Source of the DNA: a virus
IMG/VR virus record: IMGVR_UViG_3300014050_000017
Location: 1-64,000 of that record
Strand: one strand, 5' to 3'
DNA length: 64,000 nt
Shown: positions 28,192 to 41,464 of the stretch, in pieces
How positions within the stretch are numbered: position 1 is the first letter of the stretch
Layout of the letters: every line of letters begins with the position of its first letter
Notes under the pieces: model-generated
The model's database searches: none
What the model saw: only the letters and a program-made list of their open reading frames with translations
Told to the model about the DNA's origin: nothing
Position numbers and translations under genes: made by a program

Positions 28192-28713
28192 TCAGTGAAT
28201 TTTGATTTCCTTTTCCTTCTTCTCCTCAGGAACAATTCGCTCAAGGTCAATGGTCAATAGTCCATCAGCAATACGAGCGTCATTGACAACTACATCGTCA
28301 GCAATAGCAAACTTCTGTACAAAGTTGCGTGCTGCAATGCCTTTATAGGCGTAATCCGCGTAGTCTTCTCCGCGGTTGCCTTCAACAGTAATGATGTTTT
28401 CTTTATAGGTAATCCTAACATCATTCTTAGTAAAGCCCGCAATAGCCAGTTCAATCTGGGCTTTGTCATTAGGTAGGTGTTTAATGTTATACGGTGGGTA
28501 CGAGCTTTTGATACGAACATCTTCTAGTTCCTTGAACAGGTCTAGATGACGGTCAAACCCAACAGTCCATGGCGCTAGCATATTCTGCAGTGCAGAAAAT
28601 GGGTCTTGTACAGCAGGTTTTACTGATGGAAATTGTTGGATTGTTTTTGGCTTATCCCATGGTTCGTGAGGTGAACCTTTTGGGTAGCCGCCATTAATTG
28701 GAAATGTAGCCAT
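28192..28713 (-). CDS. Small heat-shock protein (Hsp20/IbpA-like)
   Basis: VGFDR, YPPYNI, IELAIAGF, YKGIAARNF, DGLLTIDL, PEEKK; start MATFP after AAGGAG. Confidence 0.92.
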   Translation of the reverse strand: MATFPINGGYPKGSPHEPWDKPKTIQQFPSVKPAVQDPFSALQNMLAPWTVGFDRHLDLFKELEDVRIKSSYPPYNIKHLPNDKAQIELAIAGFTKNDVRITYKENIITVEGNRGEDYADYAYKGIAARNFVQKFAIADDVVVNDARIADGLLTIDLERIVPEEKKEKEIKIH

Positions 28714-28835
28714 AATATATCTCCTTAGACGATATAACTTTTTGTGACCCTCCGAATGAGCGGTCAGCAATAGTATACAACAATCTAAATTAGAATATAT
28801 TCCCGTAACCTTAGAAAAGGTACATTTAGAAATGC

Positions 28836-32895: not shown

Positions 32896-33213
32896 CTAGA
32901 CCTTATCATCAAATAGGTGCTCCTTTAAAGTCTTGCCTTCTTTTTTTAATTTACGCTTTAACGCGTTACGTTCTCGATGGCTAAGACCACCCCAGATACC
33001 ATGCTGTTCATCCATCTGGTCTGAGTACAACAAGCACTGCTTGCGTACTGGGCATTCTGGCAGGCCGTCACGGCCAAAGCAGACACCCTTAGATATTGTT
33101 GCTACTTTTCTATATTTAGTTTTATCACGTGGTGGAAACCAAAGTTCGGTGTCCATGCCGCGGCATTTGGCGTTATGTCGCCAACCCTCTACGTGACCTG
33201 CGTCGTCGTACAA
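32896..33213 (-). CDS. whiB: WhiB-family transcription factor
   Basis: WRHNAKC, WFP, C...CPVRKQC, GIWGGLSHRER. Confidence 0.92.
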   Translation of the reverse strand: MYDDAGHVEGWRHNAKCRGMDTELWFPPRDKTKYRKVATISKGVCFGRDGLPECPVRKQCLLYSDQMDEQHGIWGGLSHRERNALKRKLKKEGKTLKEHLFDDKV

Positions 33214-39349: not shown

Positions 39350-39391
39350 TCTTATAGTGTAAGGGCACCCAACGATAAATGTTGGGTGTAC

Positions 39392-39465
39392 TGGCTCCCC
39401 CCCATGGATTCGAACCACAACTGGCGCATCCAGAGTGCGCTGTCCTACCGTTAGACGAGAGGGGA
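39392..39465 (-). tRNA. tRNA-Gln (CUG)
   Basis: TCCCCTC/GGGGGGA acceptor; GCGCA-CTCTGGA-TGCGC anticodon arm; GGTTCGAATCC; encoded CCA. Confidence 0.92.
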
Positions 39466-39466
39466 A

Positions 39467-39542
39467 TGGAGCGGTTGACGGGGCTCAAACCCGCGACCTG
39501 TACCTTGGCAAGGTACCGCTCTATCAACTGAGCTACAACCGC
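39467..39542 (-). tRNA. tRNA-Gly (GCC)
   Basis: GCGGTTG/CAACCGC acceptor, discriminator T, GTACC-TTGCCAA-GGTAC, encoded CCA; atypical T loop TTTGAGC. Confidence 0.9.
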
Positions 39543-39546
39543 AAGC

Positions 39547-39800
39547 GGCTAGTAAGTCTACGAGCAGACTAACCTACCAGCCATGATACATGAGGATTTA
39601 CACAAGCTCGTTGTCCTCCAGCTGTCCTCGTCAGGAGTCGGTCTTACCGCAACGCAGCCTTAGTACCAAAAATGTCAGGTCGGTTTAAACCACGCCGTAA
39701 GGATTAACCGAGTCCCCTGACGAGACCGTCTAAGCGGCTCTAGAAACCCTTAGATACTTGCGTAAACTTCCAACCAATGAGAAGCCATACAAAGTGTTAC
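39547..39800 (-). ncRNA. Candidate structured ncRNA between tRNA-Asn and tRNA-Gly
   Basis: Several stems (CTCGTCAGG/CCTGACGAG etc.) and two loop-loop complementarities; no credible ORF. Confidence 0.55.
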
Positions 39801-39804
39801 TCTG

Positions 39805-39877
39805 CTGCCCCACCTGGACTCGAACCAGGGACACTCGCATTAACAGTGCGATGCTCTGCCAACTGAGCTATAGGGCA
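39805..39877 (-). tRNA. tRNA-Asn (GUU)
   Basis: TGCCCTA/TGGGGCA acceptor; TCGCA-CTGTTAA-TGCGA; CCTGG-TTCGAGT-CCAGG; CCA not encoded. Confidence 0.92.
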
Positions 39878-41464
39878 CTAAACGTTGCCGTTAGTCAGGT
39901 AGGACCTGAGGCTATCGACCGTCATGGAAAGTTTATCACCGTCTTCTATGCCATTGCCATCTATGATGGCGTTAGCCACAGAGGACTTCTGTTGAAGCAT
40001 ATCGTGCTGGCGTTCTTCAATAGAGCCAGCCATAATTAAATCTTGAATTACGATTGAGGGCCAAGTTGATGATGCTCTTTGTATGCGGCCATTCCTTTGC
40101 GTTGCACTGCCCGAAGACCAAGGGAGGTCGTAATTGATAAGGAGATTAGCAGCAGGAAGGTCCACACCGTAGCCCCCAGCGTCAGAACTAACCAGTACGC
40201 GTACAGCGGGATTAGTATTGAAGTCAGTTTTGTTAGATTCTTTAGTACGAGCATCCATCCTCCCAGAGTATTGGCGACAGATATCTGCCCCAAGTGCATC
40301 GGTAATCTTGTCTAGCATGTCAACGTAGGTAGCAAATATAACAACCTTATTCTCTTCGCTTTGTTCTAGAAACTCTTGAACATACCTAACTAGGTAATCT
40401 AATTTAGGTGAATCCTTGCAGCTATCTAAAACCCCATTATCGACAAGCTCAGCTATATATGCGGAACCCTCTCCGCCCATTTGTTTAAATTTAGTAGCGC
40501 TGCTGCGTAACAAGTCTGGATGAGAGCAGAGCATCTTAAGTGCTCCAATCTTAGACATAATCTTTCCACGCATCTCATCCTCTGGGCCACCACGTCGAGA
40601 TTCCATGCCGTAGTGAGCCATGATGTTAAAGTTAGAACCAAATAAATCCTGTGCCTCATCTAAGTCTGCAAGCAAGTCTTGAGCTATCTTGGTATAAACC
40701 TTTGATGATGCTCTATCAAATATGACAGTAATTGGGTCTTTGTGAATTGTGTCAGGCAAGAAAGGTGCAACATCTGGGTCTTTTTGTGCCTTACGCACAG
40801 AAGCTTCCTTCATCTTATTGTGAAGGGTAGACAAGTTGCGGTAATACTGGGGTGCGCCCCAAGAGTTTCTTACAATGAAAGCCGCGTCAAAGATATCAAA
40901 CCTACCAAGTACGCTGGCGTCAACGAATTGCATAATGCTATACAACTCTTCTGGACGACCATTCTCAATAGGGGTACCCGTGAGTGCAAACCTATATGGT
41001 GTGTTGATAAGTTTTTTGACGGCTTTGGAACGCTTTGATTTAAATGACTTGATGGCTGTGGCCTCGTCAAGGACGACAAATCCTCTTGGTAAGTCTTTGA
41101 CGGTATCCCAGTCGTTAACAACTTGCTCATAATTAAGGATGATGTAATCAACCCCTGTATTACGCCAGTCTTTCGCAAGGTCGTACTGCTCTGCTCTTTT
41201 CTTTGGCGTTCCGTCAACGACCAAAGCACGTGAAGTACCATCTGTAAATTTCTCTATCTGATTAGCCCACTGATATTTCAATGAGGATAGACAAATTATA
41301 AGACCTGGTTCTTTTACTTTCCGCTCATCCATCAAACGTTCTATAGCCGCAATGGTAAGGACGGTCTTACCTAGTCCGAGGTCATACGCCACTAGAACCT
41401 TGCCACGTTCGCACATCTTGTCGACCGCTTCAGGTTGATAGGGGAGTAGAGTTCCTTTAAACAT
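39878..41464 (-). CDS. SNF2-family helicase
   Basis: LLPYQ, DLGLGKT, LDEA, LTGTPIEN, GGYGVDL, YDLPW, QRNGRIQR. Confidence 0.92.
   Translation of the reverse strand: MFKGTLLPYQPEAVDKMCERGKVLVAYDLGLGKTVLTIAAIERLMDERKVKEPGLIICLSSLKYQWANQIEKFTDGTSRALVVDGTPKKRAEQYDLAKDWRNTGVDYIILNYEQVVNDWDTVKDLPRGFVVLDEATAIKSFKSKRSKAVKKLINTPYRFALTGTPIENGRPEELYSIMQFVDASVLGRFDIFDAAFIVRNSWGAPQYYRNLSTLHNKMKEASVRKAQKDPDVAPFLPDTIHKDPITVIFDRASSKVYTKIAQDLLADLDEAQDLFGSNFNIMAHYGMESRRGGPEDEMRGKIMSKIGALKMLCSHPDLLRSSATKFKQMGGEGSAYIAELVDNGVLDSCKDSPKLDYLVRYVQEFLEQSEENKVVIFATYVDMLDKITDALGADICRQYSGRMDARTKESNKTDFNTNPAVRVLVSSDAGGYGVDLPAANLLINYDLPWSSGSATQRNGRIQRASSTWPSIVIQDLIMAGSIEERQHDMLQQKSSVANAIIDGNGIEDGDKLSMTVDSLRSYLTNGNV

Follow-up and report, generated by a model that had tools for sequence, protein, structure and literature searches.

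Results

The tract and its tRNA setting

The window analysed here is 64 kb of the 80-kb record of an uncultured virus in IMG/VR, and the record is estimated to be 83% complete. Three tRNA genes lie on its minus strand with a helicase gene just upstream of them; the surrounding replication module further encodes a primase, a DnaB-like helicase, a dNMP kinase and DNA polymerase A. The first two of these tRNA genes are separated by a tract of 261 nt. The features of this region, and two protein genes referred to below, are as follows (window coordinates).

39804-39877, minus strand: tRNA-Asn (GUU), upstream neighbour of the tract, without an encoded CCA (ARAGORN; Rfam tRNA, 66.5 bits)
39543-39803, RNA on the minus strand: inter-tRNA tract of 261 nt between tRNA-Asn and tRNA-Gly
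39467-39542, minus strand: tRNA-Gly (GCC), downstream neighbour, beginning directly after module B (ARAGORN and Rfam)
39392-39465, minus strand: tRNA-Gln (CUG), 1 nt past tRNA-Gly (ARAGORN and Rfam)
32896-33213, minus strand: WhiB gene
28192-28770, minus strand: HSP20 gene

A first-pass annotation of this DNA had described the tract as a single, densely structured RNA of ~260 nt with two pseudoknots, bracketed by tRNAs. The bracketing by tRNA-Asn and tRNA-Gly, with the other two tRNAs (Gly and Gln) 1 nt apart, was borne out by ARAGORN and Rfam, and the complementary strings that it quoted are all found where it had placed them. No tRNA, tRNA pseudogene or tmRNA was detected inside the tract by the same two programs, and a consensus scan found neither a promoter nor a terminator within it. 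The minimum free energy (MFE) of the whole 261-nt tract is -91.7 kcal/mol (z -3.29), better than 200 of 200 shuffles. When the two modules, A and B, of which the tract is composed were folded separately (z -1.23 for A and -0.34 for B), neither beat its shuffles. Since the modules alone are unexceptional, the z-score of the whole tract must come mainly from a stem that joins A to B, and the evidence for structure is comparative.

WhiB is a marker of actinobacteria and their phages. The WhiB gene, together with the origin of the relatives in lake metagenomes, suggests that the window phage is probably a freshwater actinophage and that its host is probably actinobacterial.

The tract is a cassette of two RNA modules

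The corresponding loci of 80 relatives were fetched via the helicase, which is 76-88% identical in amino acids. About 40 of these 80 loci carry the same tRNAs, almost all in the arrangement Asn-3 nt-Gly-1 nt-Gln, and none of the 80 gave a blastn match to the tract. Because tRNA-Asn and tRNA-Gly are only 3 nt apart in these ~40 related phages, the tract is an inserted cassette; in the alignment with relatives it corresponds to a clean gap of ~258 nt, with flanks that align well.

The tract is a two-gene RNA cassette within a small tRNA operon, consisting of module A followed by module B. A and B are two distinct, unrelated and conserved structured RNA families, confined to the gaps between same-strand tRNA genes in uncultured phages and exchanged as units between tRNA arrays; each is present once in the record of the window phage. 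The single RNA of ~260 nt proposed earlier did not survive this comparison: each module is found alone between tRNAs elsewhere, and when both are present a tRNA usually lies between them. A + B co-occur in at least 20 arrays, usually in the order Leu|B|Trp|A. The alignments contain gaps of 1, 2, 5 and 8 nt in addition to compensatory changes, which does not fit a coding reading; A and B are non-coding.

In relatives the same tRNA junctions hold other cargo, namely a cobalamin adenosyltransferase gene and a 47-nt hairpin insert. The former (195 aa, PF01923, E 1e-56) lies between tRNA-Gly and tRNA-Gln at L016:5741-6328; it begins right at the tRNA end and its open reading frame reaches into tRNA-Gln. 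The same insert was seen in a subgroup of the relatives (L017-L021, L025, L026, L028, L030, L031 and L038). The 47-nt insert, which forms a hairpin at the tRNA-Gly/tRNA-Gln junction of one relative (L014:2117-2163), is a third kind of cargo. We considered whether the tract is the remnant of a homing endonuclease and rejected this, as the 535-nt insert of the relatives is the cobalamin adenosyltransferase gene. A miniature element (MITE) of the IS200/IS605 type was likewise rejected, as the tract is single copy, strand-locked and covarying.

Module A

The extent of module A and its paired elements are listed below; all are on the minus strand.

39669-39803: module A, short form, RNA nt 1-135 (~131 nt), from blastn, model R2 and covariation
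39668-39672: U5 linker between A and B, from the alignments and the ends of the R1 and R2 matches
39789-39795 with 39756-39761: helix P1
39781-39786 with 39765-39770: helix P1a
39749-39754 with 39729-39734: helix P2
39716-39721 with 39674-39679: helix P3'
39706-39711 with 39680-39685: helix P4
39724-39727 (GGUC) with 39711-39714 (GACU): pseudoknot helix S1, crossing the 5' strand of P3'

Three further viral contigs (L082-L084) were matched by a 20-mer of the tract; the likeness there is limited to RNA nt 37-131 (77-85% identity in blastn over ~100 nt) and fills a 163-nt gap between tRNAs. These phages share almost no other DNA with the window or with each other, and the part common to L082 and L083 is 239 nt, comprising a tRNA-Met and the element. 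A degenerate pattern retrieved 20 more copies of A from metagenomes, between tRNAs of the same strand, and diverged copies were found with model R2 in at least 20 B loci. Module A occurs in at least six contexts: Met|A|Gln, Met|A|Leu, Met|A|Asn, Asn|A|Gln, Asn|A+ORF|Ile and, in the tandem arrangement, Met|A+B|Gly. Members of the family are 135-165 nt long with an invariant core of 25 nt. The window copy belongs to the family by sequence homology and by the presence of P1, P2, P3', P4 and S1, all pairs of S1 and P3' being formed; model R2 gives it 123.4 bits, a score that is not independent as the window was in the training set.

Covariation supports seven helices and a 4-bp H-type pseudoknot, S1, in module A. 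Among 11 close sequences, 95.5% of the cells are paired and 11 of 44 pairs show compensatory changes, as compared with 31-41% paired in controls in which the partner strand was slid. When the diverged copies found by R2 in B loci were included (30 sequences), 87.4% of the cells were paired and 22/44 pairs were compensatory (slid controls, 34-39%), although this larger alignment was fitted to the model, which biases the pairing counts in the model's favour. The pseudoknot helix S1 is paired in 120 of 120 cells (slid controls, 13-44%) and was found as six haplotypes: GGUC/GACU, CAUG/CAUG, AGUG/CACU, GAUC/GAUU, GGUG/CACU and CAUC/GAUG. P3' is 100% paired, with three covarying pairs.

This pseudoknot is not one of the two that had been named in the tract. 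One of those, TCTAAG with CTTAGA, turned out to be the two strands of P2, which is nested and in which three pairs covary; the additional short stem that a pseudoknot would require is paired in 63.6% of cells only, two of its four pairs being broken for the most part. The idea of pseudoknots in the tract thus stands for A, but through a different helix, and the TCTAAG/CTTAGA pseudoknot is not a feature of the family.

The U5 linker is the sole A/B junction in the tract, and no tRNA lies within it. An intrinsic terminator after A was considered and rejected, as none was detected in the consensus scan and other A copies lack the U5 run.

A tRNA does not always follow module A on its 3' side: small open reading frames follow it in L089 (1785-2030) and in L101, and one of them encodes a DUF7455 protein. 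In A-holding arrays we also observed a third inter-tRNA module of ~166 nt (L082:3992-4158 and L093:2523-2688), which the window does not have. Like A, its L082 copy starts with GGAGUA and ends with a GUCAG...CUGAC hairpin followed by ACAU. Many B arrays contain a spacer of ~165 nt between tRNA-Gly and tRNA-Leu.

Module B

Module B and its paired elements, again on the minus strand, are as follows.

39543-39667: module B, RNA nt 137-261, ~125 nt, from model R3 and covariation
39663-39667 with 39585-39589: helix P1
39655-39659 with 39620-39624: helix P2
39647-39649 with 39639-39641: helix P3
39633-39636 with 39625-39628: helix P4
39614-39618 with 39592-39596: helix P5 (the GAGGA/TCCTC hairpin of the first-pass annotation)
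39571-39582 with 39547-39558: helix P6, 12 bp with a 12-nt loop
39606-39611 (ACGAGC, P5 loop) with 39560-39565 (GCUCGU, P6 loop): candidate kissing loops

For the 3' half of the tract, a homologue first came from a metagenome locus, L093. This locus belongs to a relative that is syntenic with the window phage, with ~80% nucleotide identity across 10.7 kb, and its array order is Asn, Trp, 166-nt module, Met, A, B, Gly, Gln. A loop-based 18-mer common to the B copies of the window and L093 retrieved 29 true B copies from IMG/VR, and two other patterns retrieved nine more; an exact 20-mer from the variable stem of B gave no match in IMG/VR. The family now has ~40 members in 13 neighbour pairs (12 tRNA pairs and A|Gly), always on the tRNA strand. 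B copies begin at the end of the upstream tRNA with GAUAYUAAGG and stop 0-4 nt short of the next tRNA. In L109 and L116, ARAGORN found no tRNA within 400 nt 5' of B, and B there starts with AAUAC, not GAUAY.

The window copy fits this family. It starts with GRUAYUAAGG and ends in the 12-bp hairpin and a short tail, its 3' end abuts tRNA-Gly, and its 5' side abuts module A rather than a tRNA, as in L093. The covariance model R3, which was built without the window or L093, matches 39543-39667 over its full length (model positions 1-128) with 131.6 bits and an E value of 1e-26, every pair being standard. In an alignment of 30 sequences, six helices and the loop-loop pair have 98.5% of their cells paired and 21 of 40 pairs compensatory, whereas controls with the partner slid by 1-3 columns were paired in 29-44%. 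For example, the hairpin P4 is UCCU-GACG-AGGA in the window and UCCC-GACG-GGGA in most members, a compensatory change from U-A to C-G.

The last hairpin of B had been read as a 5-bp stem, AGUCU/AGACU. No covariation was seen for this stem, in which one pair fails to form in 9/33 sequences, and it is replaced by the 12-bp register of P6, in which eight pairs covary. In L136, moreover, a G-to-A change is matched by C-to-U in an otherwise invariant inner pair of P6, which favours the 12-bp register over AGUCU/AGACU. The complementarity between its loop and that of P5, noticed in the same annotation, is present and is kept in ~40 B members, the pairing itself being a candidate. All six ACGAGC/GCUCGU pairs are possible in 30/30 B sequences, with variation only as A/G opposite U, and GCUCGU is unchanged also in those members that were retrieved by patterns leaving the P6 loop free, where one C/U lies outside the six paired bases. 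As the bases are invariant except for A/G opposite U, the pairing is strongly conserved and covariation speaks neither for nor against it. Module B forms a three-way junction and a 12-bp hairpin, with the P6 loop probably kissing the P5 loop. The geometry fits an intramolecular kiss in our model, in which the 12-bp P6, starting at the foot of P1, would have P1 and P5 (10 bp and two loop bases) lying alongside it.

A likeness of CUGACGAG to a hammerhead core or to the sarcin-ricin loop was rejected, because the family consensus is CCGACGGG inside a 4-bp hairpin.

The long stem between A and B

In the MFE structure, a central stem links A nt 80-106 to B nt 146-177, and the whole tract folds ~15 kcal/mol better than A and B apart. 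As the A-to-B helix is preferred by this amount, the modules might not fold independently in this phage. One alternative to two separate genes is a single 261-nt RNA, or an A:B pair, whose A strand GUCAGGGGACUCGG would alternate between pairing locally (with CCUGAC..AACCGA) and pairing with a look-alike in B, ACCGACUCCUGACGAG. The stem and the whole-tract z of -3.29 speak for such a switch, as does the presence of A and B together in many arrays. In addition, the P3/P4 segment of B (39625-39641) is almost a duplicate of the 3' strand of A itself (39674-39685), ACCGAC[UC]CUGAC:

Window: B segment ACCGACUCCUGAC; A 3' strand ACCGACCUGAC
Another clade: B segment ACUGACUCCCGAC; A 3' strand ACUGACCCGAC

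At the U/C position of this segment, A matches B in both the window and the GUCGGG clade, as a switch would have it, but does not match it in L107/L111. The energies of the A:B segment duplexes, each tested against 500 shuffles, were:

Window: -29.7 kcal/mol, 0/500 shuffles as good
L113: -28.0 kcal/mol, 2/500 shuffles as good
L131 type: -18.8 kcal/mol, 121/500 shuffles as good
L093: -16.7 kcal/mol, 72/500 shuffles as good
L107: -12.7 kcal/mol, 347/500 shuffles as good

The values for the window and L113 favour the switch; however, the duplex is at chance level in the largest clade (L131 type) and in L107/L111. The stem is also not formed in L093, the sole relative with the same A+B tandem, and the 9-nt complementary run occurs in 77 of 2000 shuffles (~4%). 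Both strands of the stem have local, covarying partners in their own families, 100% paired: one lies in P3' and S1 of A, and the other is the hairpin P4 of B. Finally, most type-1 A copies have no B at their locus. The earlier proposal of a long stem between CTCGTCAGG and CCTGACGAG (39716-39724/39627-39635) has to be given up as a family feature for the same reasons, CCTGACGAG being the P4 hairpin of B. We consider a switch of this kind unlikely, although no other alternative fares better.

Searches for known families and partners

The first-pass annotation had suggested a search against Rfam and a search for homologues in phage metagenomes. The latter led to the two families described above, whose helices covary. 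The former, with Rfam 15 on the window and a typical array at gathering score and at E up to 10, returned no known family other than the tRNAs, plus sub-threshold noise (YrlA with 23.1 bits; Plastid-ycf2 on the antisense strand of the tRNAs). Searching the 50,697 named phage records by distant-mode blastn gave tRNA matches or nothing, whether the query was the 701-nt region or B alone. As judged by Rfam 15 and the named phage records, families A and B are uncatalogued. Of the view that the tract is a new or minimal ornate phage ncRNA, the novelty is thus retained, but it is neither a single RNA nor a minimal GOLLD or ROOL.

A scan of 185,579 prokaryote species, one genome from each, turned up no B element containing the 18-nt core; one chance match was obtained, in which only the 18 nt fit the model. 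A covariation-based survey of DNA viruses in IMG/VR reported 8,495 unnamed structured-RNA candidates (Fremin et al. 2023; PMC10690425), and A or B may be among them; the text of that paper gives no description of modules other than tRNAs located between tRNA genes.

No RNA-binding or RNA-processing partner was found among the clusters of neighbouring proteins at ~60 loci. The protein clusters common to A and B loci are HSP20, WhiB, lysis enzymes, 2OG oxygenase and nuclease. Of the ~60 loci with A or B, 30 have an HSP20 homologue, which often lies immediately upstream of the tRNA array.

Discussion

Two probable small-RNA genes in a tRNA operon

We put the probability at roughly 60% that A and B are two back-to-back genes for stable small RNAs that act in trans, located in a tRNA operon and released by tRNA processing. 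The position of the tract agrees with the first-pass annotation in this respect: it is non-coding, structured, on the tRNA strand and, to judge from its sequence, placed for release by tRNA processing. The A-B cassette would be transcribed together with the tRNAs. Its 5' end would be made by the 3' tRNA endonuclease that trims the CCA-less tRNA-Asn, and its 3' end by RNase P cutting before tRNA-Gly. A and B would each fold locally during transcription and would possibly be separated at the single-stranded U5 linker. The loops of A and B are invariant across phages with differing flanks, and this conservation, together with the analogy to phage T4 discussed below, suggests that the two RNAs may persist in a stable form and act in trans via these loops. 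The likeliest target would be a protein or an RNA of the RNA-handling machinery of the host or phage.

Next after the switch between A and B comes the possibility, which we regard as improbable, that the modules are cis spacers that aid the folding, spacing or processing of the adjacent tRNAs and are degraded after cleavage. A and B are indeed confined to tRNA operons and abut the tRNA ends exactly, and both end in a 12-bp helical stack and a 3-5-nt tail before the next tRNA. However, ~40 close relatives manage the same three tRNAs with spacers of 1-3 nt, so that the modules are not needed there, which argues against a purely cis role in processing. The modules lie beside at least 13 different tRNA pairs, and their invariant loops of 12-17 nt and pseudoknot far exceed the needs of a spacer.

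A more speculative idea, for which we see still less of a chance, is that A and B, usually with a third module (L082, L093), constitute one phage RNA device. B's copy of the A 3' strand might invade the pseudoknotted 3' domain of A to give a heterodimer or switch; or B, with two parallel stacks clamped by the kissing loops and a 12-bp stem with a tail, might mimic the shape of a tRNA and serve as a decoy for a host enzyme or defence that targets tRNAs.

The tRNA-less junction between A and B also raises the question of whether self-cleavage occurs there, with A, B or both acting as small ribozymes of a class not yet described, as this junction offers no tRNA-processing site and the folds are compact and pseudoknotted, with invariant bases in junctions and loops. 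We hold this to be very improbable: the Rfam models of hammerhead, twister, pistol, hatchet and HDV gave no match to 39350-39950 at E up to 10, and in most arrays tRNAs stand on either side of each module, which makes self-cleavage unnecessary. Least credible of all is a selfish or decaying, MITE-like DNA insertion or remnant that has no RNA function, for although the tract is a lineage-specific insertion at a junction that takes a cobalamin adenosyltransferase ORF or a 47-nt hairpin in relatives, it is single copy in the record and keeps strictly to the tRNA strand, its junctions show neither terminal repeats nor a target duplication, the B core was not found within a B element in the prokaryote genomes scanned, and the strong compensatory covariation points to selection on RNA pairing.

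Comparison with known systems

If A and B are stable RNAs released from a tRNA operon, they would resemble RNAs that have been known for a long time. For fifty years it has been known that phage tRNA clusters can hold extra stable RNAs, and species 1 and 2 of T4 are such RNAs, of unknown role. The T4 rnaD/rnaC pair, which encodes species 1 and 2, is the closest counterpart of A and B. The sizes are similar (139 nt for rnaC and 119 nt for rnaD), and the layout is the same: in T4, tRNA-Arg is followed by rnaD and rnaC in tandem on the tRNA strand with no intervening tRNA. No homology in sequence or structure was detected: R1 and R2 run with filters off on NC_000866 68000-75000 gave noise, with best E values of 0.2-0.67 (10 bits for E 0.2) lying off rnaC and 7.6 bits on rnaD. 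The host phylum and the phage type are also unlike those of the window phage, and rnaC and rnaD are stable RNAs, whereas A and B are candidates for such RNAs.

GOLLD and ROOL are associated with phages or prophages, often near tRNA genes, and have ornate folds and an unknown function. At 500-800 nt they are four to six times longer than A and B (~130 nt each), which gave no match to their Rfam models at E up to 10; the A/B tract is not evidence for a new large ornate kind of RNA. Bacterial and phage Y RNAs (YrlA), which go with Ro60, are small structured RNAs found beside tRNAs in some actinophages, with tRNA mimicry (PMC4201824). The tract differs from them in that its YrlA score of 23.1 bits compares with a cut-off of 69 and comes from a match that straddles the last hairpin of B and tRNA-Gly, and in that Ro60/TROVE (PF05731) is absent from the 80-kb, 83%-complete record, in which positive controls were found.

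A and B add two well-defined families, each with dozens of members, to the orphan small RNAs of phage tRNA clusters. They offer targets of ~130 nt from abundant freshwater phages, which are probably actinophages, and a function, if found for A or B, could explain the whole class of orphan RNAs in phage tRNA islands.

A further feature of the window concerns phages that carry A. A small HNH endonuclease gene (PF13392) at 2186-2494 on the minus strand has 66% identity to copies in L082, L084, L086, L092, L108 and L134, which are A-bearing phages otherwise unrelated to the window phage.
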